64,000 bases of DNA, from the NCBI GenBank assembly GCA_944381085.1, contig CALWJX010000002.1:50571-114570 (forward strand). The letters run 5' to 3'. Under the pieces are notes generated by a model. It ran no database searches, was not told where the DNA came from, and saw only the letters and a program-made list of their open reading frames with translations. Each line of letters opens with the position of its first letter. Positions within the stretch are counted from its first letter, which is position 1. Position numbers and translations under genes: made by a program. Positions 1-53,930 of this stretch are shown here, in pieces. This DNA comes from an uncultured Clostridia bacterium. Its GTDB lineage: Bacteria; Bacillota; Clostridia; Oscillospirales; CAG-272.

Positions 1-228
1 GGACTTCTTACCGCAAAGGTGATGAACTGGCTTTCGGGAGGAAAGATCAATCCGCTTATCGGCTCGGCGGGAGTTTCCGCGGTGCCTATGGCTGCCCGTG
101 TTTCGCAGATAGTCGGACAGAAAGAGGACCCGTCAAACTTTTTGCTTATGCACGCCATGGGACCGAATGTCGCGGGCGTTATCGGCTCCGCGGTCGCGGC
201 GGGAGTATTCCTGTCATGGCTTGCCTAA
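1..228 (+). CDS. Na+-translocating decarboxylase beta subunit (OadB/GcdB/MmdB family), C-terminal fragment; 5' end lies outside the window
   Basis: Frame 1 is open from nt 1. The tail [34 protein letters not shown]...[21 protein letters not shown] matches the conserved C-terminus of this membrane subunit family. Confidence 0.8.
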
Positions 229-8167: not shown

Positions 8168-8198
8168 AAACGCAGAATAAAAAAAGAGGGGTTTGCGT

Positions 8199-8960
8199 AT
8201 GGATAATCAGCATAATCAACCTGAAGACAAAATCGAAGCGGGCGATATCAATATTGCCGAAAAGAGCAAATTTTTCAAGTGGCTGGATAATTTTTGGTAC
8301 CACTATAAGTGGACGTTGTTGATAGCGGTGTTTTTTATCGTTGTTCTGGTGGTAGGACTGGTTCAGCTTTTCAGCAAAACGGAGAGCGACGCCACCGTAA
8401 TGTATGCGGGACCTTATCAGCTGTCCAATGACGAAATAAACGCAATCAGAAATGATCTGACCTCTCTTTTGCCGTATGATTTTAACGGTGATGAAAAAAA
8501 ATATATTACATTTATTGAATACGCGGTTTTTTCCGAAGACGAGATTGAATCGTCAAATGAAATATATACAGACGAAAACGGCGAATATGTCGATATGGTG
8601 AGTCCGATGTATAATTCTTCTAAATACAGGGAATATCTGAGTTACACATCAACCGGCGAGTGTTCGATATATTTTGTAAGTGAGTACCTGTATGAAAATC
8701 TGAAAAATGAGGAAAGACTTGTGCCCATATCCGAGGTTCTTGGAGATACAGGAGAATATACGGTTGCCGACGGAGGCTATGGTATACGGCTGGGTGACAC
8801 CGATCTTTACAAATATTTTACGTCGCTTCAGATTTTGCCCGCCGACACGGTTGTATGCCTGATGAGACCGTATGTGTGGGGAGAAAGTTCAAACGAGGAA
8901 AAATATGAGTTTGCAAGCAGCTTTTTCAAAGAGCTTGCGGAATTTAAAATCAATGAGTAA
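8199..8960 (+). CDS. Hypothetical single-pass membrane protein
   Basis: ORF with SD AAGAGGGG 7 nt upstream of ATG 8199. One TM (WTLLIAVFFIVVLVVGLVQLF). No family recognised. Confidence 0.55.
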   Translation: MDNQHNQPEDKIEAGDINIAEKSKFFKWLDNFWYHYKWTLLIAVFFIVVLVVGLVQLFSKTESDATVMYAGPYQLSNDEINAIRNDLTSLLPYDFNGDEKKYITFIEYAVFSEDEIESSNEIYTDENGEYVDMVSPMYNSSKYREYLSYTSTGECSIYFVSEYLYENLKNEERLVPISEVLGDTGEYTVADGGYGIRLGDTDLYKYFTSLQILPADTVVCLMRPYVWGESSNEEKYEFASSFFKELAEFKINE

Positions 8961-12234: not shown

Positions 12235-13539
12235 ATGAACGATAACAAAAACACCTGCGCTTTTGCCGATGCTGAACAGGACGGACGGGTCGTATTCACT
12301 GAGGAGATGAAAAAAGATTACACCATTCTGCTGCCGAATATGCTTCCGAGACATTTCAGGATCCTTTCAAAGGTTTTTCAGTTTTACGGTTATCATACTG
12401 TTCTGCTTGAGGAAAACAGCGAGGAGGAGGCGAGAAAGGTAATAGACGCCGGACTGAGAAGTGTACATAACGACGCCTGTTATCCGGCATTGCTTGTCAT
12501 AGGTCAGTTTATCAGCGCGCTTGAAAGCGGGAAATATGACCCTCATAAAACCGCGCTGATGATGACACAGACCGGCGGAGGATGCCGCGCGTCCAACTAT
12601 ATATCCCTGATAAGAAAGGCGCTTAAAAAAGCGGGTTTCGGTTATGTCCCGGTAATATCTCTTAATTTTTCGGGGCTTGAGGACAATCCCGGATTTAAGA
12701 TAACAATACCGATGATTCACAGAGCGCTTTACGCGGTGCTTTACGGAGATCTACTGATGTCTCTGATTAATCAGACCCGCCCATATGAGACGGTAAAGGG
12801 AAGCGCGGAGGCGCTTGCGGACAAATGGGTAGACCGCCTGGTTGATGAGATGACCCACCATACCATTCGTTACTCCGCGGTAAAAAAGAATTATGACCGA
12901 ATAGTCTCCGATTTCGCCAAAATCGAGAAAACCAAAGAAAAAAAGGTCAAGGTGGGAATTGTCGGGGAAATATTTGTTAAATTTTCTCCGCTTGGCAATA
13001 ATAATCTTGAGGATTTTCTGGTTTCCGAAAACGCGGAACCGGTTATGGCGGGTCTTGTCGATTTTCTTTTGTACTGCATGTATAACCCTGTTGTGGACGC
13101 AAGACTGTACGGAAAAGGGAAAAAGACCGTATTTATATATAAAGCGGTATGCGCTTTTATTCAAAAAAAGCAAAATGATCTGATTAAGGCTATAAAAAAA
13201 GAGGGCAGCTTTACTCCGCCTTCCCGCTTTAAAAACACCCTGACGGCAAATGAAGGATATATCAGCAGCGGTGTAAAGATGGGAGAGGGATGGCTGCTTA
13301 CCGCCGAAATGCTTGAGCTTATACATGATGGCGTAAACAATATTGTCTGCGCCCAGCCTTTCGGATGTTTGCCCAATCACATCGTGGGTAAAGGAATGAT
13401 GAAGCCCATCAAAGAAAAACATCCCGATGTGAATATTGTCGCAATTGATTATGACCCGGGAGCAACCAGGATAAACCAGGAAAACAGGATTAAACTTATG
13501 CTCGCCAACGCAAACGAAGCTATGACCGTAAATGCCTGA
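12235..13539 (+). CDS. 2-hydroxyacyl-CoA dehydratase / benzoyl-CoA reductase subunit-like protein (HgdB/D-component family)
   Basis: NDACYPALLV, GGGCRASNY and CAQPFGCLPNH motifs are paralogous to the C-terminal domain of the preceding gene. The gap between the two genes is 22 nt. Confidence 0.75.
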   Translation: MNDNKNTCAFADAEQDGRVVFTEEMKKDYTILLPNMLPRHFRILSKVFQFYGYHTVLLEENSEEEARKVIDAGLRSVHNDACYPALLVIGQFISALESGKYDPHKTALMMTQTGGGCRASNYISLIRKALKKAGFGYVPVISLNFSGLEDNPGFKITIPMIHRALYAVLYGDLLMSLINQTRPYETVKGSAEALADKWVDRLVDEMTHHTIRYSAVKKNYDRIVSDFAKIEKTKEKKVKVGIVGEIFVKFSPLGNNNLEDFLVSENAEPVMAGLVDFLLYCMYNPVVDARLYGKGKKTVFIYKAVCAFIQKKQNDLIKAIKKEGSFTPPSRFKNTLTANEGYISSGVKMGEGWLLTAEMLELIHDGVNNIVCAQPFGCLPNHIVGKGMMKPIKEKHPDVNIVAIDYDPGATRINQENRIKLMLANANEAMTVNA

Positions 13540-37070: not shown

Positions 37071-39578
37071 ATGTCAGCCAAAGAAATTTCACTGAAAAAC
37101 GCATACTGGTTGGTATGCCAGAAGCCGGACGGTTTATTTCCCGATACCGTAAATTCATGGGAAACCGCTCTTACCCCGGAACATCAATTCGCTCCTATCA
37201 AGGATACGCACGGCACCCCAATGTTCAGAAAAAGCTTTGACGCCAAGTCCGGCGAAAAGGCGCTGATTACGTCTACCGCGCTCGGCATTTACGAGCTTTG
37301 GTGCAACGGCAAAAGAATCGGCGTAAAGGAATATGACGGAAATGTTGTGTATGACGAGCTTAAACCGGGTTGGACAGAATACAGAAAACGGGTTATGTCA
37401 TTCACATATGATATCAGCGATTATCTGAAAGACGGAAACAATGTGGTTTTGGCGGTCGCGGCTCCCGGATGGTGGAACGGCAGAATATCCTTTAATCAGT
37501 ATGAAAACAATGACATCGCGTTTTGTGCCGCTATACAGGTGGGCGATAGAGTGATATACACCGACGAAACCTGGGATACCATGTGGGGAGGCAGAGTACG
37601 TGCCGCAGATATATGGGACGGCGAGATCTGTGACGGAAATATTCCTTCCTACGAGGAAATATCGTGCGTCAGCTACAATACTGACGGATGGAAAAAGCCG
37701 ACTGTCGCCGATCACGGTAATATTGAGATAACGCCGAATATAGGACCCGCAATCCGTATCCGCAAGGGACTTGATAAGGAGCCGGTATCGGTTACAATAT
37801 ATGACGGTGTAAAAGATAACGGCAGTGATTACGGGGAAATAAACGTAGTTTCACGGTATGACAACGAGGATGCGTTTGTGTTAAAGAAAGGACAAAAGGC
37901 TGTCGTTGATTTCGGACAGGAAATGGTGGGTTGGCCGCAAATAAGGGTACATACCGAGAAGAACGCCACAATTTGTCTGAGAGCATCCGAAATGCTCAAT
38001 GACAGCGGATTAAAATCAAGAGGAAACGACGGCGCAAAGGGTTCCGTTTATACAATAAACTATCGCTCGGCAAAGGCAAAGGCATATTATAAGGCAAACG
38101 GAAATGACGCCGGAGAAAAATATTGTCCGATGTTTACTTTCTTCGGTTTCAGGTATTTTGAGATAAGCTCCGACAAAGATATTGAGGTCATGTCGCTTAA
38201 AGCGCTGACAGTCGGTTCGGACATTGAGGAAACGGGTCATATTGAAACTTCGCACAAAGATGTAAACAAGCTTATATCAAATATTATCTGGGGACAAAGA
38301 AGTAACTATCTCACCGTGCCTACCGATTGTCCTCAGAGAGACGAAAGGCTCGGATGGACGGGAGACACTCAGATATTCTGCAATACCGCCGCGTATAACG
38401 GAGATGTTGACAGCTTTTTCAGACAGTGGCTTACCGACGCCCGCGACTCGCAGAACAGCGACGGCATTTTCCCCGACGTTATCCCCGCTGTGCGTGTGGT
38501 AGGATACGGCGGAGCCGCATGGGCTGACGCTCCCATTATAGTCTGCCACGTTATGTGGAAAATGTACGGCGATACAGATATAATCAGAGAAAACTACGAT
38601 TCGCTTGAAAAATACATGTCGTGGCTTGCGAGCAGAGGCATGGAGGGACCGGGCGAATGGTATGCGGACTGGCTGGCATATGAGCCTACGAGCGGAAAAT
38701 ATATCGCCAAGGCTTATTATGCTTACGACGCTATGCTGATGTCCGAGCTTTCAGGCGTTATAGGGCTTAGCGATAAGCAAAAGCTTTACGGTGAACTTTA
38801 TAACGCTATAAAGGATGACTTCAATTCAAACTACTGTGACGGTACGGGAATGCTCAAGGAAGAATACAGGACGCAGACCGGGTATCTGCTTGCGCTTAAG
38901 ACCGGTATGCTTGACGGTGAAAATGTTGACATTGCGGTAAGAAATCTTGCCGAAAAGATAAAGAACAACGGATATAAGCTTTCAACCGGATTTGTGGGCA
39001 CCGGAACTCTCAACCAGACGCTTTCCGAGTTCGGACTTCACAATCTTGCGTATTCCTTATTGCTCCAGACCGACAATCCTTCATGGCTTTACAGTGTGCA
39101 TCAGGGCGCTACGACTATCTGGGAAAGATGGAACTCGTATACTTTGGCGGACGGCTTCGGCGATGTGGGAATGAATTCGTTCAACCACTATGCGTACGGT
39201 GTAGTTGAGGAATGGATGTACAGATACATGGCGGGTATTGAAGCGGATAAGGCTCATCCCGGATTTGAACATGTAATACTTCAGCCTAATCCCGATACCA
39301 GAGGGGCGGATGAGCTTCCTGCGGGACAGGAAAACATAACTTGGGTAAAAGCTTCTTTCAATTCAAGAAGAGGCAGAATCGTATCTGAATGGAGTCTTGA
39401 CGGTAAATTTACATACAATACAGAGATTCCTATGGGTGCGACACTGTATTTGCCTGTTATCGGGGAGAAGCATACATTTACAATGAACGGAGAAGAGAAG
39501 TCAATATCCGATTGTAAGGTCGAAAACGGCAAACTTGTAATAGAGCTTGCACCCGGAAAATATTCTTTTGAAATGTAA
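37071..39578 (+). CDS. Alpha-L-rhamnosidase (GH78)
   Basis: VPTDCPQRDERLGWTGD hallmark, a six-hairpin domain (WERW...NSFNHY) and N-terminal beta-sandwich domains. No signal peptide. Confidence 0.88.
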   Translation: MSAKEISLKNAYWLVCQKPDGLFPDTVNSWETALTPEHQFAPIKDTHGTPMFRKSFDAKSGEKALITSTALGIYELWCNGKRIGVKEYDGNVVYDELKPGWTEYRKRVMSFTYDISDYLKDGNNVVLAVAAPGWWNGRISFNQYENNDIAFCAAIQVGDRVIYTDETWDTMWGGRVRAADIWDGEICDGNIPSYEEISCVSYNTDGWKKPTVADHGNIEITPNIGPAIRIRKGLDKEPVSVTIYDGVKDNGSDYGEINVVSRYDNEDAFVLKKGQKAVVDFGQEMVGWPQIRVHTEKNATICLRASEMLNDSGLKSRGNDGAKGSVYTINYRSAKAKAYYKANGNDAGEKYCPMFTFFGFRYFEISSDKDIEVMSLKALTVGSDIEETGHIETSHKDVNKLISNIIWGQRSNYLTVPTDCPQRDERLGWTGDTQIFCNTAAYNGDVDSFFRQWLTDARDSQNSDGIFPDVIPAVRVVGYGGAAWADAPIIVCHVMWKMYGDTDIIRENYDSLEKYMSWLASRGMEGPGEWYADWLAYEPTSGKYIAKAYYAYDAMLMSELSGVIGLSDKQKLYGELYNAIKDDFNSNYCDGTGMLKEEYRTQTGYLLALKTGMLDGENVDIAVRNLAEKIKNNGYKLSTGFVGTGTLNQTLSEFGLHNLAYSLLLQTDNPSWLYSVHQGATTIWERWNSYTLADGFGDVGMNSFNHYAYGVVEEWMYRYMAGIEADKAHPGFEHVILQPNPDTRGADELPAGQENITWVKASFNSRRGRIVSEWSLDGKFTYNTEIPMGATLYLPVIGEKHTFTMNGEEKSISDCKVENGKLVIELAPGKYSFEM

Positions 39579-39601
39579 TCATAAATAAAATTAAATAGAA
39601 A

Positions 39602-39638
39602 GGATACGCCATGGCTCATTTTGAGCCATGGCGTATCC
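39602..39638. terminator. Bidirectional terminator (perfect 16-bp palindrome) at the strand-polarity switch
   Basis: GGATACGCCATGGCTC / GAGCCATGGCGTATCC, 5-nt loop, A-rich upstream and T-rich downstream. Confidence 0.8.
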
Positions 39639-39806
39639 GGATTTTGGGGTTTGCGAAAAAAAGGAGATTTTATTTATTCCATAAGTGTGAATGTAATAAT
39701 ACAGTATGTTGAATTAACCGGACTTACCAATCATCGGCGCGTCAGAGTCGGCGGTAAATTATTTTCCGAAGTAAATTTATACCGAGACATAACGATGTAC
39801 AGATTA

Positions 39807-40481
39807 TTAAGAGGCAATATACCTTTTTCTTAAATCTCCGCATTCATGAAAGGCGGATTCATTTATGACCGCTGAAGCGGGGATATCCGGCAGCACCAGA
39901 GAAGTGCAGTAAGCAAAAGCGTATTCGTCAATATAATCAACATATTCGGGCAATATTACGTCACGAAGCGATACACAGGCATAAAACATCCCGTTCGCAA
40001 GTATTTTCAAACCTTTGGGAAGTCTGGCAGATTCAAGCTTTCTGCATCCTTCAAATACCATTTCGCCGAGATGGATTATATTGTCCGGCAGATTGACCGA
40101 CACAAGAGAAGAACAGTATGAGAACGCCTTTTCCTCTATTCTTTTCAGTGAGGAGGGAAGAGTTATATTTTTGAGCTTTCCGCATCCCATAAACGCCCTT
40201 GAAGCGATAATTTTCGCGCCTGATATTTTTACACTTTCAAGTTTTGCGCACCATGAAAACGCGTATTCGCCGATATTTTTCACGGTTGACGGCAGAATAA
40301 TGTCACAAATATTTTCGTTTCGGTAAAAAGCTCTGTCCGATATTTCAACTACGGGAATATTGTTTCCGATGTATTGGGGAACGGTCAATTCTTTGCCGGT
40401 AAAATTCGATGCGGAAGAGAGAGAGGCGGTATTGTTGTCGTTTATTGTATATTCAATTTCGTTTTCCGTAAATTTTAACAT
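39807..40481 (-). CDS. BspA-type leucine-rich repeat protein (LRR_5-like), no signal peptide
   Basis: Repeating ~23-aa units: I.....F..C..L..V.LP..L..I. Start at ATG 40481, with GGAGG 9 nt upstream. Confidence 0.7.
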   Translation of the reverse strand: MLKFTENEIEYTINDNNTASLSSASNFTGKELTVPQYIGNNIPVVEISDRAFYRNENICDIILPSTVKNIGEYAFSWCAKLESVKISGAKIIASRAFMGCGKLKNITLPSSLKRIEEKAFSYCSSLVSVNLPDNIIHLGEMVFEGCRKLESARLPKGLKILANGMFYACVSLRDVILPEYVDYIDEYAFAYCTSLVLPDIPASAVINESAFHECGDLRKRYIAS

Positions 40482-40710
40482 AATACATTTCCTCCGTTTT
40501 CTTCTTTCTGACAAGTATATTTTACAACAAATAAGCCGTTTTGTCAACAGAATCTGTGATAATTAATATTTTATAGGAGTTTTTTAAATATTCAAACTTT
40601 GATTCTTAATGAAATATTAATCTTTAATGACATAAAACATACTTATAAGATTATACTCATCGAATGCTTTGGTTATTCATCTGATAAAAACTTTTTATTT
40701 TGAAATGAGA

Positions 40711-41592
40711 TTAACCTCTGTAATCCTCTCTGATAAACGGATATTCTGTTTTGGAATCGCAGAGAAGCCTGTATTTTTCGGGACGGCGATATGCGTTGCC
40801 GTGTACCTCGCTTTCTCGGTATTGGCGAAGCTTATCCAAATCAAGCTCGGCTGTAAAAATTCCTTCTTTTTCATCCGCCTGTAAAATACACGTATCCCGC
40901 GAATCCTGTTCGTCGGGCAGATACGCCATGCCGTCAAATACGCTTGAGAAGCCGTTGCAGTCCGGGACGTCCTTGGGATAATTGCAGGTAGCTATTGCCA
41001 GCATATTCTCATATGCTCTTCCGCGAAGCTGAGAGAGCCTGTTTATTTCCATGGGACAAGCGTTCGGTACAAGAATCAGCTCCGCTCCCTTGAGCATCAG
41101 AATCCTTGCGCTTTCCGGAAACTCACGGTCATAGCATATCATAGCTCCGACATTGACTTCACCGCAGGCGGTATTTATTGTCGCCACATAAAAATCCTCG
41201 CCCGGAGTAAGATTGCGCTCCACATCAAAATCACAAGTGTGTACCTTGGAATATGTAAATTGCTTTTTACCGAATCTGTCAAACAGCACCATTGAATTGC
41301 GCGGATTGTCCTCATGCTTTTCAAGCAGTGTAATTCCAATTGCCATTGATAAATCCCTTGCCGCGTTTCCGAATTCTCTGACAAATTCGCTGTCCTGTGA
41401 AACAGCTTCGGACTTCCAGACTTCAACGGGACGGTTATATATCCGATATCCGTTGCTCCACATTTCGGGAAACAGAGCAATGTCACATCCCAATTTCTTT
41501 GCCTTTTTGCAAAAGTCAAGTCCCTTTTTCAGATTTCCGTCAAGACTGTCACAGGGAGATATCTGCAACAGACCTATTTTCAGTTTTTTCAA
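40711..41592 (-). CDS. Carbon-nitrogen hydrolase (nitrilase superfamily) protein
   Basis: E-K-C triad context: ALFPEMW, YSKVH, MICYDREFPE. TTG start with AGGAGG 9 nt upstream. Confidence 0.8.
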   Translation of the reverse strand: MKKLKIGLLQISPCDSLDGNLKKGLDFCKKAKKLGCDIALFPEMWSNGYRIYNRPVEVWKSEAVSQDSEFVREFGNAARDLSMAIGITLLEKHEDNPRNSMVLFDRFGKKQFTYSKVHTCDFDVERNLTPGEDFYVATINTACGEVNVGAMICYDREFPESARILMLKGAELILVPNACPMEINRLSQLRGRAYENMLAIATCNYPKDVPDCNGFSSVFDGMAYLPDEQDSRDTCILQADEKEGIFTAELDLDKLRQYRESEVHGNAYRRPEKYRLLCDSKTEYPFIREDYRG

Positions 41593-41832
41593 TTTTTAAG
41601 ACCTCCTGTTATTTATATCGGTTCGGTTTGCTCATCCGTATCTTTATAAGTCTTTGGTTATCCCGCAAGGTTTTTCAAATTGTCTGTTCCGACGAAAGGT
41701 AAAGCGTCAAATGTCGGAAACAGGACATGCACAACATAATTTTTAAATTTTTGTAGAAATAAATTCGGATTTCCCGATGATTAACACATCGGAAAATCCG
41801 TTTTTTATCCGGTGATGTACAATTATTTTGTA

Positions 41833-43794
41833 TTAAACCGTAAGTTCGGTATCCTTTTGCAAAGGATATTCTTTGCCCTTCCACCGGAGAGTACCGCCGT
41901 CGGAGTCTGTCTTTACCGTCAGTTTTCCGTTTTTGAGCTTTACCGAAACTTCGCCGCAGGGAAGAGGTACTACTCCGCTGAATTCTTTGTATTTACCGGG
42001 CTTGGGCTCTACAGTAAAGGTTTTATAGCCTATACTTGTAGGATATACTCCCAGACAGTAACGTCCGAGCAGGTATATAGGTCCGCTGCCCCATGCGTGG
42101 CAGAGTGAACAACCGTATTTCATTCCGTACATTTCATAGTGTTCCGCGCCTTGTCTCTGCGGAATATACTGTTCCCAGATAGAGGTGCCGCCAAGGTCTA
42201 CAATGCCTCCCCAGTATGACTCGATTTTATCCTGTATGTGTGTAAGGTCGCCGGTTTTTCCGTAAGCCATCAGTTCGAAAAATTCAAAGTACGGGGTGGT
42301 TATATGAGTTATGCTTTCATTGTCAAGCACGTTTTTAACAATGCCTTTAGCGTTTTTCTTTGATACAAAATCGTAAATTATCGCGAAGATATTCGCGTGT
42401 CTTGTCACTTTTTCAAGTCCGGAGGAATAACAGTCTATGAAAGCTCCCTTGTCTTTTCTCCAATAGTCCTTCATTATTCTGCGTTTAAGAGACGCTGCGC
42501 TTGTTTCATAAGGTTTGCCGTCTTCTCCGAGCGCGTAAGCCAACTGTGACATAGAAAGCTTTGTTTTCCAGTACAGAATCTGCTCGGCGCACAAGTTTCC
42601 CGATTTATCCATGTCCGACCAGTCTATGAATATCCAATCGCCCTCACGCTGACATATGTAGTCGTTCTCGTCGGCTCTCGATGAAATGAAGTCGTAAAGC
42701 GCGCGTATTCTTTTCCAGACAAATCTTATAAAATCAATATCTCCGGTGCTTGCGTAGTATTCATACGTTCCTATTATAAGGTACATTGAGTAATCGTTTA
42801 TCGTGTTGATGTGCTGCTCATACGGCGGTTTTCCCAATAGCGCAATTATAGTACGCTTCGTTATCTCAGGGTCAAAGTACAGATAATTGTTTGCCATATA
42901 GGATTGATAGGCGTCCCCCGACCAGACCCATCTGTCCCTTTTTATTCCGTCAAGGAAAAATTCTCTTGAATTCAGATGAAACGTATAAGCGCAGATTTGC
43001 CAGATGTTGTGTATTTTTTCATTGTCGCAAAAGAAAGACGCGCGGTCGGTAAGGGGAAGATATTCATAATCCGCGCTCACCTTGAGCGAATCTGTATTTT
43101 CGCCCTTGATGTATACATACCTGAACGCTCTGCCTCTCATACGGTATTTGGAATTTCCGCTTATCTTTTTGCGAACCAAAGTGTACTGAGTGTCGGTGGC
43201 TTCCTCTTCGGATTCTCCGAAAAACACTTCGTATTCGCGGGTTTTGTCGGCTCCGCTTATACATAACAGGGCAAATGTTTCTTTGCCGAAATCAAATACC
43301 CTGCCGCCGCTTATTTCACGGTCGCTTACGGGCATTATTTTCTTGTATGAGAACTTGAATTCCCTCGGGTCGTCATCCTCATTCGGATATTCGGGATATG
43401 CGCCTACAGGGAACTGTTCGGTGGTGTTGTGATTGCATATCCAGGTTTCGTCCGTACACAGAAATTCACTGTTTATGTAGATGCAGGGAAAGGAATACGC
43501 GTCGCATATAACCCGTATATTGGCGGTATGTGTACCGGCGCCGAACTCCACTTTGTCGTTTATGCTGAGTCTTTTTCCGTCAATTTCAATGTATCCGGTT
43601 CCATATGACTTTATATTGAAAAATCCTTCTTTGTCAGAGCTGAAAGTTTTTGAAAAGGTGACGACAGGGTAGGGAACCGACAAAGACCAGAAACACGGGT
43701 ATTCGGCGCCGAATTCCTCCCGGCGGGAATGAAGCTTTATAGAATGATACAACTCGTAGTCGCCCATAAGCCATATCCATTTTGCCTTATTCAT
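41833..43794 (-). CDS. Six-hairpin glycosidase, alpha-L-rhamnosidase (GH78)-like
   Basis: DGIKRDRWVWSGDAY parallels the GH78 DCPQRDERLGWTGD segment. The C-terminal SLCHAWGSGPIYLL is also typical of GH78. Confidence 0.6.
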   Translation of the reverse strand: MNKAKWIWLMGDYELYHSIKLHSRREEFGAEYPCFWSLSVPYPVVTFSKTFSSDKEGFFNIKSYGTGYIEIDGKRLSINDKVEFGAGTHTANIRVICDAYSFPCIYINSEFLCTDETWICNHNTTEQFPVGAYPEYPNEDDDPREFKFSYKKIMPVSDREISGGRVFDFGKETFALLCISGADKTREYEVFFGESEEEATDTQYTLVRKKISGNSKYRMRGRAFRYVYIKGENTDSLKVSADYEYLPLTDRASFFCDNEKIHNIWQICAYTFHLNSREFFLDGIKRDRWVWSGDAYQSYMANNYLYFDPEITKRTIIALLGKPPYEQHINTINDYSMYLIIGTYEYYASTGDIDFIRFVWKRIRALYDFISSRADENDYICQREGDWIFIDWSDMDKSGNLCAEQILYWKTKLSMSQLAYALGEDGKPYETSAASLKRRIMKDYWRKDKGAFIDCYSSGLEKVTRHANIFAIIYDFVSKKNAKGIVKNVLDNESITHITTPYFEFFELMAYGKTGDLTHIQDKIESYWGGIVDLGGTSIWEQYIPQRQGAEHYEMYGMKYGCSLCHAWGSGPIYLLGRYCLGVYPTSIGYKTFTVEPKPGKYKEFSGVVPLPCGEVSVKLKNGKLTVKTDSDGGTLRWKGKEYPLQKDTELTV

Positions 43795-45052: not shown

Positions 45053-45131
45053 GTAGTGTAAAGAAATTGAATTAACCTTCGGGCAATTTCTTTTAATGTT
45101 TAACATACTATTTAGGGGGATATATAATATT

Positions 45132-45974
45132 ATGACCGAAAACAGATTTTCATGCGGACCCGGTTCGGGCAGGGAAAGCGTTTCAATAGAAACAAACAGA
45201 ATTCTTGACTCATGCAAGGATAGAGACTGTTTCGAGAATGTCCGTGTATTTCTCACGGATTTTGGAAATGAAATAGTTGAAAGAACCAGTACAATCAGAG
45301 TAAAAAGCTCTTGCATCACATGGACATACATCAATATAGACCCGGTTCAGTTTAACAAAGGTTTTTACACTGTAACAATCAGATTTTATATAAAACTTGT
45401 ATTTGAAGCCTGCGTGGGAGGAGGACATTCTCAGGAGTTCGACGGTATTGCGGTCCTTGAGAAAAATGTAATTCTTTACGGTGGAGAGAGCAATGTCAGC
45501 ATTTTCCGCAGTTCTTCCGATTCAATGAGCTTCTGCGCTCAACCGGAACCCTGCTACTGTGAAAAGAATGTTCCTACCGCTGTTGTGGAAGTAGTTGATC
45601 CTATTGTTCTCGGACTTAAAGTGGTTGAGAATGTAAACGAGTGTTGCTGCTGTTGCTGCTGCGCATGTGATATACCTGAAAGTATAACACATACACTTTC
45701 GGCAAATCTCAGCGGCGACAACGGAAACGAACCGGGCAGATACCTTGCGGTTTCTCTCGGAGTGTTCTCGATTATCCGCATAGTACGCCCGGCGCAGTAT
45801 ATCGTAAACGCTACCGAATACAGCATACCCGACAAAGAATGTGTTTCCGCTACTCAGGACGATCCTTGCAGCGTATTCCGCGCAATGGCGTTTCCCACCT
45901 CTGAATTCAGCATGGGATGTACTCCGACATTCCTCGGCGACAGATCCGGCAATCCCGGAAAATGCGGCTGCTGA
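45132..45974 (+). CDS. Cysteine-rich hypothetical protein (21 Cys in 280 aa; ECCCCCCCAC run); candidate spore coat/exosporium component
   Basis: ORF with AGGGGGA upstream of ATG 45132, which gives MTENRFSCGPG. It ends ...GKCGC. No TM or signal peptide. No family recognised. Confidence 0.6.
   Translation: MTENRFSCGPGSGRESVSIETNRILDSCKDRDCFENVRVFLTDFGNEIVERTSTIRVKSSCITWTYINIDPVQFNKGFYTVTIRFYIKLVFEACVGGGHSQEFDGIAVLEKNVILYGGESNVSIFRSSSDSMSFCAQPEPCYCEKNVPTAVVEVVDPIVLGLKVVENVNECCCCCCCACDIPESITHTLSANLSGDNGNEPGRYLAVSLGVFSIIRIVRPAQYIVNATEYSIPDKECVSATQDDPCSVFRAMAFPTSEFSMGCTPTFLGDRSGNPGKCGC
45642..45668 (+). repeat. (TGY)7-GCA-TGT codon tract encoding C7AC
   Basis: tgt tgc tgc tgt tgc tgc tgc gca tgt, read directly from the sequence. 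Confidence 0.9.
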
Positions 45975-46095: not shown

Positions 46096-46956
46096 TCAGT
46101 CAGCAGCTCGAAGTCTTTCGACAATGCTTTGCTTTTCGAGATTTCTGAAGCAGATATACGGAATCAGTACGGCAAAGAAAATCAGAATCGGCGCGCATAC
46201 CGTAAGCGGCATAAGTGTGAAACGAAATGTAGAAGTCCAGTCATTCGCCACAATTATACGGACGCCTATGCCTACCGCCAAAGCAGACAATACATATGAG
46301 GAAATCAGGGTAAACGCGGCATAATATAGTCCCTCGTCTATAAGCATTCTTCTGAGCTGACGCTTTGTCATTCCGATGCTCTGTATCATCGCGAATTCCT
46401 TCTGTCTTGAAACGATAGCGGTTACCATGGAGTTGATAAAGTTCAGAATGCCGACCAAAGCGATAATTATACTTATTGCCAGACCCATTACGGTATTGGC
46501 GCGCGTCTGATCTTTATAGTGCTCTGTTAATGTGGTTTTAGAGGTGAAATTCAGGCTCTTATCCTCATCTTTGCGATAATCATTCAGCATCTGCTCGGCG
46601 TCGGCGCGATATTCTTCGGATACGTCGAAAAACAGCTTACGAAGCGTGTTATCCGGATACATCTGTCGGAATGTTTCGGCAGGGAGATAAAATGAAAGAA
46701 AATCCGGGGTATCGCCGTTCAGTCCCTCAGTGACAGCGGATATGTCTGTAACAATAGCCATGACTTCATATTGTGTTCCGTTCAGTTCAACCGAATCTCC
46801 TATCGAATAGGTGGGCTGGGTTTCGTATTCATTTTCCTCTGCGCCCGACGCCGCTTCGACAATCACATATCCGCCGGCGAGAAACTTATCTGCGTCAAAT
46901 TCGCCTTGAAGCATTACGCCGTCTTTTGAGAAGGTATCTATGATGTGATTTTGATT
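46096..46956 (-). pseudogene. FtsX/MacB-type ABC permease, C-terminal half only (truncated)
   Basis: Periplasmic-domain tail, then TM, RQKEFAMIQSIGMTKRQLRRML and two more TMs. The N-terminal TM1 and the preceding module are absent. The frame closes at an in-frame TGA (46957-46959), and there is no SD. Confidence 0.7.
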
Positions 46957-47208: not shown

Positions 47209-47580
47209 TCAACCCGCATCGCCTTTTGAGGATTTGTCATCATTTTCGGAATTTGCTTTTTCATCTTTTTCCAAGGACTTGCCTTTTTCAGCTCCGCTGA
47301 TAAAGCTTTCGGCGTAAATTCCTTTTTCAATATTATCCGAGGAATGATGTTCCTCTTTCTTTTTTGTCATAAGAATAACAATTAAAAACAGCGCCGCTAT
47401 GGCAATTGAGGTAATAGGCGGCTTTTCAAGAACAGCGAACAGGACCCCGCATATGGTACAACTTACAATACCGATTATACCGGTTAATCTCTGCTTCGTA
47501 AATATTCCTACTATAAGCGGAATAATGCCGCATCCCAATCCAATTGCTGCCCCGACAACCAAAGAAATGAATTTGTCCAT
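47209..47580 (-). CDS. Small membrane protein with a charged C-terminal tail
   Basis: GAGGAGG lies 7 nt upstream. Three hydrophobic helices, then a Lys/Glu/Ser-rich tail. No family recognised. Confidence 0.6.
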   Translation of the reverse strand: MDKFISLVVGAAIGLGCGIIPLIVGIFTKQRLTGIIGIVSCTICGVLFAVLEKPPITSIAIAALFLIVILMTKKKEEHHSSDNIEKGIYAESFISGAEKGKSLEKDEKANSENDDKSSKGDAG

Positions 47581-47740: not shown

Positions 47741-47783
47741 GTATCCAAAAAATAAATCGGCTTTTTATAAAATAAAGCCGATT
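47741..47783 (-). terminator. Rho-independent terminator of the VTC-DUF4956 operon
   Basis: Perfect 10-bp stem AATCGGCTTT / AAAGCCGATT (47755-47764 / 47774-47783). The minus-strand T-run is TATTTTTTGG. Confidence 0.8.
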
Positions 47784-47851: not shown

Positions 47852-48535
47852 TCAAAAATCTGTAGCTTTTTGAACAATGGACACGTTCAGATTTCCGTTC
47901 ATCGTCCGTATATCATCAATCAGTTCTTTTTGCTTCGAGATGTCTTTCAGTTTGATGCGGTAATCAAGTTCCGCAAGCGTTCCGTAGTCGGTTGTTCTTA
48001 CCTTGTCAAGGTGATAAAACCTGCAGTGCTTTTCAAGTACGGAATCGAAGACGCCGTAAAAATCAAGGTTTTCGGGTACGATTACGGTAAGTTTCATAAT
48101 ACGTCCTCCGAAGTTGTCAAATCCTACAAGATTGGCGATAATCAGTACTATAAGCACGATGCCGACGCAAACCACGGCCAACCCTATAAATCCGGTTCCG
48201 CACGCCATGCCGGAGGCAAGTGAAAGAAACAGGTATACAAGCGCTTTGGGGTCTTCAAGCGTACTTCTGAATCTGATCAACGCGAGTCCCCCGCCTATGG
48301 ATATTGCTCCGGCAATATTGTTCCCGATGCAAGCCACAATGATAGATACCGCGGGACCTATGAGAAGAATAGTAACTATTAAGGAAGACATATATCCGTT
48401 TTTGCGGTAAGTAAATATGTAAACAAAACATATAGCAAGCGATATTGCCAAAGCCGCTCCCATAAAAATAAGGACATTTTTCAGAGAAGAGTTAGGAGTT
48501 ATTTGAAAAAGTGTACGGTTAAAAAATTCGTTCAT
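47852..48535 (-). CDS. DUF4956 family membrane protein
   Basis: About four TM helices, with the GGGLALIRFRS motif as I recall it for DUF4956, followed by a ~90-aa soluble tail. The start ATG overlaps the upstream stop (ATGA). Confidence 0.7.
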   Translation of the reverse strand: MNEFFNRTLFQITPNSSLKNVLIFMGAALAISLAICFVYIFTYRKNGYMSSLIVTILLIGPAVSIIVACIGNNIAGAISIGGGLALIRFRSTLEDPKALVYLFLSLASGMACGTGFIGLAVVCVGIVLIVLIIANLVGFDNFGGRIMKLTVIVPENLDFYGVFDSVLEKHCRFYHLDKVRTTDYGTLAELDYRIKLKDISKQKELIDDIRTMNGNLNVSIVQKATDF

Positions 48536-49293
48536 TTTGATGACGCCTCCATGCGGGGAATATAATCGGGTCTGTTTTCAATCTGCTTTTTAGTATACTT
48601 CTGAAATTCGGAACCGTATTTGGAATATGTACCGAAAATAATGCCGTATTTGTCCATTATACGTGAAAACCACAAGGGAAGGGCGCCGGCAAATTTTATC
48701 TCAAGCAGGGTTTTTCCGTCCGGTAGGAGCAACTCACCGTACCTGCCGGATTCGAGCCTCAGGTCATGTCTTCTTGTAACAATATCTTTATCGACCGTTA
48801 CTCGGAAACTGCTGTCTTCTTTTCCGTAAAACGCGTTTCTCAAATAGCTTATGTATACCTTCGGATATACATGGTTAAGTTCTCTGAAATAGTCGATTTC
48901 CTTAAGCACCTGACTGTCGATGTAACTCAGATTTTCGGGATGTATTCCTTCATTTAAATATCTGTAAGCTTGCGCGAGAGTAATTCTTGCCCGTCTTTTG
49001 GTTCCGACGCCGTACAGCTTGCGTTTCAATTCGATAAAGACGGTTGATGTTTCATCGGGCACACCGTAGCTTCTCATTCTGAGTTTTTCTTTAAACGGCG
49101 GTTTCATTACCGAACGTCTGATGACGTCATTGTTGTCGTTGTCGAAATATATATTGCACACCATATAAGGTTCACCGTCTTTATTGAAAACGTCCGGTTC
49201 CATATAGTCCGAAATATCTCGAATGAAGTCGGGGACAAGATCGTTGTTTATAAGAACTTTTTTCTCAAGGCGTTCAAAAGTATTCTGAGCCAT
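48532..49293 (-). CDS. VTC-domain (polyphosphate polymerase-like, CYTH/triphosphate-tunnel superfamily) protein
   Basis: FERLEKKVLI...CNIYFDNDN...KEKLRMRSYG...VFIELKRKLYGVGTKRRA matches the bacterial VTC-domain pattern. GGGAGG lies 9 nt upstream. Confidence 0.75.
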   Translation of the reverse strand: MAQNTFERLEKKVLINNDLVPDFIRDISDYMEPDVFNKDGEPYMVCNIYFDNDNNDVIRRSVMKPPFKEKLRMRSYGVPDETSTVFIELKRKLYGVGTKRRARITLAQAYRYLNEGIHPENLSYIDSQVLKEIDYFRELNHVYPKVYISYLRNAFYGKEDSSFRVTVDKDIVTRRHDLRLESGRYGELLLPDGKTLLEIKFAGALPLWFSRIMDKYGIIFGTYSKYGSEFQKYTKKQIENRPDYIPRMEASSK

Positions 49294-49447
49294 GACAACG
49301 AACCTCCCGTGACTTTACACATATTTTTTTGCTCTGAAGTAAGAGTATTTTGTTCAGATACAATATAATATCACAAAACCGCGTTGGCGTTGTGGATATT
49401 TTGTGAACATATTAACTATTATAGGTTAACATTAAAATTTTGTTACA

Positions 49448-52132: not shown

Positions 52133-52384
52133 ATGCTTCTCCTTTATATAATCCTAAATGATAAACTGAAAAATTTGGTTTTCCGTAATTTTGTCTTCCG
52201 CTTATATAATATAATGATATATTTAATTAATATTATAACGCATAATAATACAAAAATCAATAGCAATATTTAAAATTTTGAAAAAAAAACAGTTATTATT
52301 ATTTTATCAAAATTTTGTTTTAAATTATCTTCGGCAGTGTGTGAAACAATATAATTGAAAATATACGAAGGGGTATTGAATAAA

Positions 52385-53185
52385 ATGACAAAAAAGAATA
52401 TAAATTCAAAAATAAAAGTTTTTGTCTGTTTTTTGTGCGCTCTGTGCATATTCGCGCTTTCCTGTTTGACTGTCTTCGCCGAAGCGGGAGTGTTTAATTG
52501 GTATGTGATGAGAAACAAGGAGCACAAGCAGCCTGTAGCGGAGAAAAACCTTTCCTTTATTTCAGAATACGGTGGGTATTATATAGATACAAAGCATGGC
52601 GACAGTACGGAAGAAAAGGTCGTATATCTTACGTTTGACGCCGGATATGAAAACGGCAATGTCGAAAAAATACTTGACGTGCTGAAAAATCAGAATGTAA
52701 AAGGCGCGTTTTTTGTGCTCGGAAATCTGATTGAACGCGATACGGGTTTGGTATGCAGAATGTTTGACGAGGGGCATCTTGTATGCAATCATACCTATTC
52801 CCATAAAAGCATGGTGGGAAAAAGCAGGGAAGAGGTTCAGTCCGAACTCAGACGTCTTGAACAGACATGTAAGGACCTTACGGGCAGAGAACTGTCAAAA
52901 TACTATCGTCCTCCGGAAGGAAAATTTGACGCGAAATCACTTGAATACGTAAATGATATGGGATATAAAACGGTATTCTGGAGTTTTGCGTATGAAGACT
53001 GGGACAACAACAGGCAGATGAGTCCGGAAAAAGCCAAGGCGAAAATACTTGACAATATTCACAACGGCGAAGTACTTTTACTTCATCCCACATCGGCTAC
53101 AAATGCCGCGGTGCTTGAAGATGTGATAATTGAACTGAAAGATCAGGGATACAGATTCGGAACCTTGGACGAGCTCTGCGGCTGA
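52385..53185 (+). CDS. pdaA: Delta-lactam-biosynthetic de-N-acetylase (sporulation polysaccharide deacetylase PdaA)
   Basis: Collinear with B. subtilis PdaA from memory: NW..R...H.QP, YLTFDAGYENG, EGHLVCNHTYSH, YYRPPEG and TVFWSFAYEDW. N-terminal signal/TM. Confidence 0.8.
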   Translation: MTKKNINSKIKVFVCFLCALCIFALSCLTVFAEAGVFNWYVMRNKEHKQPVAEKNLSFISEYGGYYIDTKHGDSTEEKVVYLTFDAGYENGNVEKILDVLKNQNVKGAFFVLGNLIERDTGLVCRMFDEGHLVCNHTYSHKSMVGKSREEVQSELRRLEQTCKDLTGRELSKYYRPPEGKFDAKSLEYVNDMGYKTVFWSFAYEDWDNNRQMSPEKAKAKILDNIHNGEVLLLHPTSATNAAVLEDVIIELKDQGYRFGTLDELCG

Positions 53186-53222: not shown

Positions 53223-53930
53223 ATGACGCTACGTAAAACTTTGTTATGGCTGACGGCATTATCGGTTATTTTTTGCACTGTTTCAAATTACAGTAAGCCG
53301 GCGGACTGTGCCGTGGCAACAAAAACAGATATTTATAAGAATTACCAAAACAGCGGCAATAAAATTGCCCTGACGTTCGACGACGGTCCTCACCCACGGC
53401 AAACGCATGAAATCCTTGATATCCTTGACGAGTACGGAATAAAAGCTACATTTTTCGTAATCGGAGTAAATGTGAAAAATTATCCCGAGGCGTTTCAGGA
53501 AACAATAAGGCGCGGGCATGAAATAGGCAATCATACCTATTCACACCCGCACTTAAGCGGCGCCGATTATAATACTTTGAAGAACGAAATAGATAAATGC
53601 GAATCCGCGATTTCACTCGCGGCGGATTATAAACCCAAGCTTTTCCGACCGCCGGAAGGATGGATAGACAGCGATGTCAAAACCTTATCCGAACAGTACG
53701 ATTATAAGGTTATTCTTTGGAACATTGACACAAAGGACTGGGCGCACACACCATCCGACAAAATAGTAAAATATGTGACCGATAATGTCAAGCCGGGAGA
53801 TATAATACTGATGCACGATTATATCGGAAAGAACAGCCCTACCGCCGAAGCCTTGCGAGGTTTCATTCCCGTACTGCTCGAAAGAGGGTATCAGTTTGTG
53901 GTTGTAAGCGAGCTTATAGGTTCAAATTGA
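53223..53930 (+). CDS. NodB-homology polysaccharide deacetylase (peptidoglycan GlcNAc deacetylase-like)
   Basis: ALTFDDGP, HEIGNHTYSH, LFRPPEG and ILMHD motifs. Signal-like N-terminus. Confidence 0.85.
   Translation: MTLRKTLLWLTALSVIFCTVSNYSKPADCAVATKTDIYKNYQNSGNKIALTFDDGPHPRQTHEILDILDEYGIKATFFVIGVNVKNYPEAFQETIRRGHEIGNHTYSHPHLSGADYNTLKNEIDKCESAISLAADYKPKLFRPPEGWIDSDVKTLSEQYDYKVILWNIDTKDWAHTPSDKIVKYVTDNVKPGDIILMHDYIGKNSPTAEALRGFIPVLLERGYQFVVVSELIGSN

Follow-up and report, generated by a model that had tools for sequence, protein, structure and literature searches.

The two genes analysed here, which encode a soluble VTC-domain protein and a DUF4956 membrane protein in a 64-kb stretch of a gut Clostridia genome (the whole of it referred to as the window), are best explained as a coupled two-subunit polyphosphate (polyP) synthase and exporter at the membrane. 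We assign this reading as a whole a probability of roughly 0.38. It builds on the fold and the conserved active-site residues of the soluble protein, and on a pairing of the two genes that is close to obligate across genomes. In the proposed mechanism, the bicistronic, translationally coupled unit would give rise to a two-subunit membrane enzyme, whose soluble subunit would act as a Vtc4-type triphosphate-tunnel metalloenzyme that holds a nucleoside triphosphate and Mn2+ or Mg2+ in its basic tunnel and moves the gamma-phosphate onto a growing polyP chain. DUF4956, for which about five helices in an MgtC-like bundle and an ACT-like domain on the cytoplasmic side are predicted, would contact this enzyme, dock it on the inner membrane face and, probably as an oligomer, hand the polymer on to the cell envelope. 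In fuller modules, a surface Cthe_2159-type lipoprotein, or a secreted CotH kinase together with exopolysaccharides, might then use the polymer in the envelope.

In reviews of polyphosphate, VTC is the polymerase of eukaryotes and PPK that of prokaryotes, and the pair may represent an overlooked bacterial route to polyP synthesis and perhaps to its export. The product would be identical to that of PPK1 and PPK2 (polyP from nucleoside triphosphates), but the folds are unrelated and PPK enzymes are not known to work with a membrane protein of their own. Should the enzyme be active, an account of bacterial polyP drawn from ppk genes alone would miss part of it, above all in Clostridia of gut and rumen, in spirochaetes, and in streptococci. 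The association of VTC and DUF4956 is itself already published: cotH, 'polyphosphate polymerase', and DUF4956 (/DUF4832) were described as accessory genes beside Gram-positive pel operons (bioRxiv 10.1101/768473), pairs of a VTC and a membrane protein were reported from the Clostridium perfringens NELoc-2 locus (PMC2879425), and mutants of the corresponding gene pair, SIR_1592/SIR_1593, have been described in Streptococcus intermedius (Raya et al., PMC12345266). The window shares VTC and DUF4956 with these systems, but differs from the Pel accessory set in lacking CotH, Pel genes, and DUF4832. A sequence-only reading of the window had considered the pair biochemically undescribed, and no biochemistry of the bacterial pair was found in the searchable literature.

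Layout of the two-gene unit

Both open reading frames, the VTC motifs, and the stop/start overlap named in the sequence-only reading were confirmed in the window sequence (Table 1). The Shine-Dalgarno site it had assigned to the pair is present before the VTC gene, and a second one serves the DUF4956 gene. Less clear-cut is the clean terminator that it had proposed behind the DUF4956 gene: RNA folding gives a 10-bp hairpin with a 9-nt loop (47755-47783) followed by UUAUUUUUU, which makes a terminator plausible, but the hairpin is statistically not strong (z = -1.6) and was missed by the consensus scanner, perhaps because its loop exceeds the scanner limit of 3-8 nt. Beyond the hairpin, the consensus scan found a perfect promoter (TTGACA-17-TATAAT, 47642-47614, minus strand) for the next gene.

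Table 1. Features of the VTC-DUF4956 unit, with positions in the window
Feature	Position	Strand	Basis
Promoter-like site GTAACA-17-TATAAT, 5' of the VTC gene	49418..49446	-	Consensus scan, 10/12 matches; consensus match alone
Shine-Dalgarno GGGAGG, 9 nt 5' of the VTC ATG	49303..49308	-	Read in sequence
Soluble protein of 253 aa with a Vtc4-like triphosphate-tunnel (VTC) domain	48532..49293	-	PF09359, AF2 model, fold match
Shine-Dalgarno GGAGG, 10 nt 5' of the DUF4956 ATG, within the VTC gene 3' end	48546..48550	-	Read in sequence
ATGA overlap of VTC stop and DUF4956 start (translational coupling)	48532..48535	-	Sequence
DUF4956 membrane protein, 227 aa	47852..48535	-	PF16316, AF2 model
Intrinsic-terminator-like hairpin and U tract closing the two-gene unit	47746..47783	-	RNA fold

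The window contains the bare pair, with argG and argH upstream and a small transmembrane ORF and an FtsX fragment as further neighbours. A 123-aa transmembrane ORF downstream was considered as a third subunit and rejected, as it has its own perfect promoter past the terminator and only one detectable homologue. Horizontal transfer of the pair was likewise discarded for lack of a compositional signal (GC 0.42 for the pair vs. 0.43 for the window). No gene for an extracytoplasmic partner adjoins the pair, which counts against the reading as a synthase and exporter. CotH homologues are absent from the ORFs of the whole window, as had been noted from the sequence, and the window ORFs scanned include no ppk gene (PPK1 or PPK2), a result that covers the window only and not the rest of the genome.

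The VTC-domain protein and its active site

The 253-aa protein matches the Pfam family VTC (PF09359) with an E-value of 5.7e-42 and 144.3 bits (cut-off 23), and residues 8-229 align to profile positions 2-230 of 235 and thus span the whole domain, which is the only one found in the protein by Pfam; an SPX domain was not detected. It contains the motifs FERLEKK, IYFDNDN, KLRMRSYG, and FIELKRK...KRRA. The AF2 model (pLDDT 92.8) is an eight-stranded triphosphate-tunnel beta-barrel without a transmembrane segment, in agreement with the earlier statement that bacterial VTC-domain proteins have no membrane region. The top PDB match of this model in Foldseek is the Vtc4 catalytic domain (E 2e-14, TM-score 0.70-0.72), and the best 13 matches are all Vtc4, Vtc3, or Vtc2 chains (TM-score 0.62-0.73; Vtc4 chains 0.62-0.72), compared to only 0.44-0.52 for other tunnel enzymes.

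Residues K12, R72, R74, K90, Y150, and R152 align to Vtc4 K200, R264, R266, K281, Y359, and R361, and all six are invariant in the VTC homologues (33/33). In yeast, mutation of any one of these Vtc4 residues lowers polyP, and K458 of the S457-K458 pair distinguishes active Vtc4 from the inactive Vtc2/3, which lack it (bioRxiv 10.1101/2023.01.27.525886). E198 (in E198-x-K200) and S224-K225 of the bacterial protein are also invariant among the homologues, lie at the expected places of the Mn ligand E426 and of S457-K458, and fall within the full-length Pfam and Foldseek alignments. A residue-level sequence alignment of this C-terminal part yielded no Vtc4 match with a single segment, a sub-profile, or a relaxed full profile, because Vtc4 carries a long insertion; this counts against the reading as a synthase and exporter. 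The expectation that the protein would align to Vtc4 was thus borne out for the six triphosphate-binding residues; from their positions we infer that E198 may be the equivalent of the metal ligand and S224-K225 that of the Ser-Lys pair.

With the catalytic (central, tunnel) domain of yeast Vtc4 the bacterial protein shares the Pfam family, the eight-stranded tunnel fold, and the basic residues for triphosphate binding; the metal ligand and the Ser-Lys pair also seem to correspond. Unlike Vtc4, it has no SPX domain, no fused three-helix DUF202 domain, and no Vtc1/2/3 partners, it is approximately 40 residues shorter and has no counterpart of the insertion that separates Vtc4 residues 387 and 420, and its first strand has a glutamate at the position of Vtc4 T198. 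Taken together, the data support a genuine Vtc4-type tunnel domain with conserved triphosphate-binding residues and a probably conserved metal ligand and Ser-Lys pair, and a role as polyP polymerase is plausible.

The membrane partner and the possible fate of the product

The 227-aa protein belongs to the family DUF4956 (PF16316; E 2e-9, 37.8 bits, cut-off 30.6), which is also matched by all of its 35 homologues. Its AF2 model (pLDDT 79) has five helices within residues 18-137, three of them strongly hydrophobic and two glycine-rich or amphipathic, so that the earlier count of about four transmembrane segments was roughly right. A C-terminal domain (residues 146-222) with the order beta-alpha-beta-beta-alpha-beta resembles ACT/PII-like domains and the C-terminal domain of MgtC (2lqj) at E-values of about 0.004-0.04 among the 50 Foldseek matches listed. 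DUF4956 proteins have an invariant motif of their own, G-x-N-x-A-R-A...LIRFR, and invariant R88 and R90 together with a conserved R/K pair are located at the predicted cytoplasmic face.

No kinship between DUF4956 and the transmembrane domain of the VTC complex emerged, as no VTC chain occurs among the 50 PDB matches listed and DUF202 is not matched in Pfam; three-helix channel domains of this type are found in neither protein of the pair. From the proposal of a split VTC analogue, the Vtc4-type tunnel domain and the near-constant DUF4956 partner stand, but the partner looks MgtC-like and is, compared to the eukaryotic VTC complex, a separate and non-homologous protein. The similarity to MgtC/SapB proteins (Escherichia coli YhiD, Salmonella MgtC, and the Mycobacterium tuberculosis MgtC C-terminal domain 2lqj) lies in the architecture, in which an ACT-like domain in the cytoplasm comes after a small bundle of helices, and in the profile-profile comparison, which aligns the final two helices and the C-terminal domain, including a common G-x-x-x-G-x-G stretch. 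In hhalign, the probability was 10.8% with an alignment of enterobacterial MgtC only and 60% (P 8.6e-5, score 36.9) once a Firmicute MgtC was included; this second match extends collinearly through TM4, TM5, and the C-terminal domain, and control scores were 14-21 (reversed 15.2, shuffled 14.2 +/- 2.5). Weak matches to the MgtC Pfam family were obtained for 18 of the 35 homologues (best E 0.0017). In contrast, neither the MgtC signature ERQ...AGLRTH nor the helices at the N-terminus have a match, the window protein scores below the threshold of PF02308 (13.9 vs. 31.4 bits), and no tunnel enzyme is known as a partner of MgtC. A distant relationship of DUF4956 to MgtC/SapB, with the ACT-like domain in the cytoplasm, is thus probable; if the proposed mechanism is correct, the tunnel protein would be the first defined enzymatic partner of MgtC-like proteins.

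This relationship supports an alternative in which the VTC protein would be a polyP polymerase and DUF4956 only its membrane anchor or allosteric regulator, i.e. an MgtC-like adaptor with a ligand-sensing ACT-like domain. The polymer would then stay in the cytoplasm, for example in a membrane-proximal granule, or the partner would tie synthesis to the homeostasis of ATP and phosphate. Raya et al. (PMC12345266) independently described the streptococcal homologue as 'MgtC TM + ACT' and pointed out that MgtC acts on ATP synthase and PhoR. In the same study, deletion of the DUF4956-type gene of S. intermedius altered aggregation and the Pel level and no phenotype was reported for the VTC-type deletion, a difference that counts against a strict two-subunit machine and suits a regulator better than an obligate subunit. 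However, the nearly constant adjacency of the two genes and their translational coupling point to subunits in stoichiometric amounts, the MgtC likeness remains below the Pfam threshold, and the recurrent extracytoplasmic partners are hard to explain with a purely cytoplasmic product. We consider an anchor or regulator somewhat unlikely, and less probable than the two-subunit synthase and exporter.

A role of DUF4956 as polyP conduit is hypothetical. The resemblance of the protein to MgtC rather than to the VTC channel counts against export, since the MgtC family is known for regulatory protein-protein contacts and not for channels or transport.

The extracytoplasmic neighbours (Cthe_2159 lipoproteins, secreted CotH, and Pel loci) and the invariant arginines of DUF4956 argue for an envelope destination of the product. 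In fuller modules the pair is joined by an OmpR-type two-component system together with either a Cthe_2159 lipoprotein or CotH as extracytoplasmic component. The commonest additional neighbour in the 80 closest loci is a Cthe_2159 protein (35/80), with a lipoprotein signal on most copies, and Cthe_2159 lipoproteins and two-component systems also accompany the closest relatives of the window pair. CotH, which had been proposed as the frequent companion, was rejected as a standard partner, as it was found in only one of these 80 loci; secreted CotH proteins adjoin the pair in more distant relatives. The usual third component in this clade is instead the Cthe_2159 beta-helix lipoprotein with the two-component system.

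A wider claim would be that many anaerobic bacteria have a PPK-independent polyP synthase coupled to export, in which a Vtc4-like enzyme feeds the chain through an MgtC-like oligomer and the exported polyP serves as surface polyanion or as phosphoryl donor for CotH. We regard this generalization as rather unlikely. If true, bacteria would have evolved independently, and with unrelated helices, a solution to the task of the VTC complex in eukaryotes. Export would explain envelope or extracellular polyP and the occurrence of the pair with Pel, CotH, and surface lipoproteins. At the surface, the exported polymer could act as a polyanion in association with deacetylated, cationic polysaccharides and with Ca2+-binding beta-helix lipoproteins, or it could supply phosphoryl groups to secreted CotH kinases, for which no ATP is available outside the cell.

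Alternative chemistry and the constancy of the pair

The tunnel superfamily is chemically diverse, and the proteins that rank behind the VTC chains in the fold search carry annotations as putative cyclases and triphosphatases. The enzyme might accordingly not be a polymerase, but a tripolyphosphatase, polyphosphatase, NTPase, or a cyclase- or transferase-type enzyme, and the pair a phosphate-scavenging or signalling device. Like classical CYTH/TTM hydrolases and CyaB-type cyclases, the window protein has a tunnel fold, a basic lining, and a presumed dependence on divalent metal. Its first beta-strand reads R-x-E-x-K, with E10 invariant in the homologue alignment, and so keeps one glutamate of the hydrolase-type ExExK motif, the metal- or water-activating residue that is lost in Vtc4 (T198). 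Hydrolytic chemistry is possible on this basis, and the residue counts against the polymerase reading. The OmpR-type two-component systems of related loci scored best against PhoB/PhoR-like and similar NCBIfam models, all below cut-off, and no phosphate sensing is claimed for them. In contrast to the hydrolases and cyclases, the first glutamate of ExExK is replaced by arginine and VTC-specific residues are present. All residues known to be necessary for the Vtc4 polymerase appear to be kept, including the probable equivalent of K458, and the fold is far closer to Vtc4 (TM-score 0.7) than to any hydrolase (0.5 or lower), which makes a non-polymerase function quite unlikely.

That VTC and DUF4956 are mere neighbours with unrelated functions, as the isolated window pair amid housekeeping genes might suggest, is effectively refuted by the neighbourhood survey: the VTC gene is followed immediately by a DUF4956 gene in the same orientation in 78 of the 80 closest species-level loci (Clostridia and Treponema), start and stop codons overlap in the window, and the flanking genes change freely while the two genes remain together. 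Of the two exceptions, one is explained by a contig end and the other by decay to a remnant. Reciprocal look-ups with four distant DUF4956 proteins and the window's own pair, which was re-found on three other assemblies, placed DUF4956 directly downstream of a VTC gene in all five cases.

A natural fusion was sought among the best 150 of the 7,476 DUF4956 clusters (50% identity). The sole protein with both domains, P0497, was dismissed as a deletion or artefact, as both halves are truncated, and the lack of a believable fusion counts against the two-subunit reading. Among species-representative genomes, the pair occurs in at least 598 matching stretches. Whereas Raya et al. (PMC12345266) reported no three-gene set outside pel loci, the two-gene VTC-DUF4956 core clearly occurs there on its own.

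The VTC-DUF4956 gene pair and its conservation

The overlapping VTC-domain and DUF4956 genes seen in the sequence-only reading are both present as open reading frames (ORFs) that share the stop/start tetranucleotide ATGA. Each has its own Shine-Dalgarno sequence, GGGAGG 9 nt ahead of the VTC start and GGAGG at 10 nt for the DUF4956 gene, the latter within the 3' end of the VTC gene. With a promoter-like site at its 5' side, a hairpin and U tract at its 3' side, and a separate promoter for the next ORF, the pair forms its own two-gene unit. The hairpin, statistically unremarkable (z = -1.6), is plausibly the terminator. At 0.42, the GC content of the pair is level with the 0.43 of the window and gives no hint of recent acquisition. 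The same pair is present in many metagenome assemblies, and the matching contig in GCA_964319475.1 (uncultured Eubacteriales/Oscillospirales) also has spoIIID.

When species were scanned with one genome each, at least 598 matching stretches came up, of which the best 80 were examined. The DUF4956 gene lies directly downstream of the VTC gene on the same strand in 78 of these loci, which, together with the overlap, bears out the proposed coupling. One of the two exceptions is a contig end with the first DUF4956 residues still visible; the other, in a MAG (L080), has an intact VTC gene followed by a remnant of the DUF4956 C-terminus and is the sole broken pair among the 80 loci. Reciprocally, four distant DUF4956 proteins (33-38% identical) are each encoded directly downstream of a VTC gene, as is the window's own DUF4956 on three other assemblies. 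Carriers among the 80 loci include many Clostridia families and Treponema, and Streptococcus, Bifidobacterium, and C. perfringens are published carriers (bioRxiv 10.1101/768473; PMC2879425). An exhaustive HMMER search returned 7,476 DUF4956 clusters (50% identity), whose lengths almost always fall within 215-240 aa. The only apparent VTC-DUF4956 fusion in the best 150 of these, the cluster representative P0497 (337 aa, metagenomic), spans positions 35-175 of the VTC profile and those of DUF4956 from about 59 onwards; with both halves truncated, it is probably a deletion or assembly artefact.

Features of the window and of related loci (unprefixed positions refer to the window)
Feature	Position	Strand	Remarks
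VTC-domain ORF	48532-49293	-	253 aa, first gene
DUF4956 ORF	47852-48535	-	227 aa, second gene
Promoter-like site GTAACA-17-TATAAT	49446-49418	-	upstream of VTC gene
10-bp hairpin, then U tract	47783-47746	-	after DUF4956 gene
Perfect promoter TTGACA-17-TATAAT	47642-47614	-	for next small ORF
123-aa ORF	47209-47580	-	directly downstream of pair, behind the perfect promoter; three predicted TM helices, Lys/Glu/Asp-rich tail
272-aa ORF	46096-46914	-	C-terminal FtsX domain, second half only of MacB-type periplasmic domain
292-aa cysteine-rich ORF	45096-45974	+	contains CCCCCCCAC; called gene in three assemblies of same species
Alpha-L-rhamnosidase gene cluster	37071-43794		with BspA-type leucine-rich-repeat protein, GFO/IDH/MocA oxidoreductase
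434-aa ORF	12235-13539	+	no Pfam family
255-aa ORF	8193-8960	+	no Pfam family
Two tandem polysaccharide deacetylase genes	52355-53185, 53223-53930	+	divergent from argG-argH-VTC-DUF4956 block
DUF4956 remnant	L080 8779-8853		25 residues
CotH, very large, secreted	L084 8864-15919		1,740 aa, flanks pair
CotH, very large, secreted	L087 4435-7038		867 aa, leucine-rich repeats, flanks pair
True MgtC gene (PF02308)	L086 12258-12992	-	3.5 kb from pair, one metagenomic contig

The VTC-domain protein

The first protein of the pair matches the whole Pfam VTC domain (E 5.7e-42) and has no NCBIfam model. A profile of 33 homologues retrieved only chains of Vtc4, the yeast polyP polymerase subunit, and its inactive relatives Vtc2 and Vtc3 from the PDB at E <= 0.01 (best E 4e-14). 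The closest structure to the AlphaFold model (pLDDT 92.8) is the Vtc4 catalytic domain (E 2e-14, TM 0.70-0.72), compared to TM 0.44-0.52 for other tunnel enzymes. In the cryo-EM structure of the VTC complex, triphosphate is bound by K200, R264, R266, K281, R361, K458, S457, and Y359 and Mn by E426; in vivo polyP depends on all of these, and K458 is the single residue absent from Vtc2 and Vtc3 (bioRxiv 10.1101/2023.01.27.525886). Profile alignment equates K200, R264, R266, K281, Y359, and R361 with K12, R72, R74, K90, Y150, and R152 of the window protein, and all six are invariant in 33 of 33 homologues, upholding the proposed Vtc4-type assignment. No sequence alignment to Vtc4 was obtained for the C-terminal third because of a long Vtc4 insertion there. 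Two motifs in the bacterial protein, E198-x-K200 and S224-K225, are invariant among homologues, and E198 and S224-K225 would occupy the places expected for Vtc4 E426 and S457-K458.

Sequence and model together tip the balance towards polymerase chemistry, since the residues known to be important in Vtc4 all appear to be retained and Vtc4 clearly outranks every other structure in similarity. Glu10 makes a hydrolytic or other tunnel reaction a live alternative: with R8-x-E10-x-K12 in its first strand, the bacterial family preserves one of the glutamates of ExExK, the motif that characterises hydrolytic tunnel enzymes (CYTH family), whereas Vtc4 (R196-x-T198-x-K200) has T198 instead.

The membrane partner and the role of the pair

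The second protein matches Pfam DUF4956 above threshold, and a sequence search of the PDB gave no relative. Its model (pLDDT 79) contains five helices within residues 18-137, the third and fourth glycine-rich and of lower hydrophobicity, and a beta-alpha-beta-beta-alpha-beta domain (residues 146-222). Foldseek matches are confined to this C-terminal domain (ACT, PII-like folds, and the M. tuberculosis MgtC C-terminal domain), with no VTC chain among the 50 matches listed. Weak Pfam MgtC matches were obtained for 18 of 35 DUF4956 homologues, and Pfam DUF202 matches for none. Profile-profile comparison to an enterobacterial MgtC/YhiD alignment gave a weak match (10.8%). With a Firmicute MgtC added (the L086 sequence served to widen the MgtC alignment), the probability was 60% (P 8.6e-5) and the score 36.9 (reversed alignment, 15.2; 30 column shuffles, 14.2 +/- 2.5), with the match collinear across the final two helices plus the C-terminal domain. 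With no VTC chain among the fold matches listed and no DUF202 match, DUF4956 is not homologous to the VTC channel; it probably belongs, distantly, to the MgtC/SapB kind. The equivalent S. intermedius protein SIR_1592 was independently called 'MgtC transmembrane domain plus ACT domain' in a 2025 study (PMC12345266). The third helix has clusters of invariant residues at its ends, G71-x-N73-x-A75-R76-A77 and I87-R88-x-R90, and the positive-inside rule would place the R44-K45 loop, R88/R90, and the C-terminal domain on the cytoplasmic side.

On the best-supported reading, the two proteins would make up a Vtc4-type enzyme of two subunits docked at the membrane, a variation on VTC that differs from the eukaryotic complex in its non-homologous membrane partner. 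DUF4956 may act purely as an anchor or regulator, a live alternative; hypothetically, it might instead conduct the polymer outward, the channel role that the sequence-only reading, partly supported overall, had raised. That the third partners are strictly extracytoplasmic and that arginines are conserved speaks for export, whereas the resemblance to MgtC, known for regulatory contacts with ATP synthase and PhoR (summarised in PMC12345266), and unequal mutant phenotypes speak against it. In S. intermedius, deletion of the DUF4956-type gene and of CotH reduced aggregation in sputum medium by more than half and altered Pel levels, and no phenotype was reported for deletion of the VTC-type gene (Raya et al., PMC12345266).

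The window carries an intact and unexceptional copy of a module that is very widespread, has been noticed before and is biochemically uncharacterised. The accessory genes that Whitfield et al. listed beside Gram-positive pel operons are cotH, 'polyphosphate polymerase', DUF4956, and DUF4832 (bioRxiv 10.1101/768473), and for C. perfringens NELoc-2 Lepp et al. tabulated two VTC-membrane protein pairs together with CotH and a glycosyltransferase (PMC2879425). The sequence-only reading overlooked these reports and that of Raya et al.; its statement on biochemistry stands, as our literature search found no enzyme activity, polyP measurement, or interaction reported for any bacterial member. PolyP reviews place VTC as eukaryotic. 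No PPK was found among the ORFs scanned in the window, a 64-kb stretch of the genome. The annotation itself will not surprise a specialist, but PPK-independent polyP synthesis in bacteria, perhaps coupled to export, would matter if demonstrated.

Genomic neighbourhood and other features of the window

The pair is flanked mostly by variable housekeeping genes. A Cthe_2159-type beta-helix protein, in most cases with a lipoprotein signal peptide, is encoded in 35 of the 80 loci, often as the next gene. An OmpR-type response regulator occurs in 21 loci and a histidine kinase in 18, with no NCBIfam model above its cut-off to assign their specificity, and GGDEF-EAL proteins occur in a few; Desulfosporosinus youngiae has the full order regulator, kinase, VTC, DUF4956, Cthe_2159. 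Large secreted CotH proteins stand beside the pair in more distant relatives (L084, L087), so the CotH partnership named earlier holds there, but Cthe_2159 had been missed. In L084, DUF4956 and CotH are separated by a 599-aa protein that matches no Pfam family. The window has no Cthe_2159, associated two-component system, or CotH, the last as already noted from the sequence.

In the window, argG and argH separate the deacetylase genes from the pair. The closest relatives also have one or two deacetylase genes upstream of VTC, immediately so in L007 and L008 and with at least one gene between in L001, L002, L004, and L006, which may be conserved synteny or point to a functional connection with polymers of the cell surface.

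The 123-aa ORF belongs to no Pfam family, and in L002 a homologue with 30% identity occupies the same position. The 272-aa FtsX ORF has no adjacent ABC ATPase gene and looks like a 5'-truncated permease remnant, but three assemblies nonetheless annotate it as a gene. The 292-aa ORF has no Pfam match. The 434-aa ORF follows a 1,015-aa BadF/BcrA-type CoA-enzyme activase, and the rhamnosidase cluster suggests that the organism uses plant glycans.
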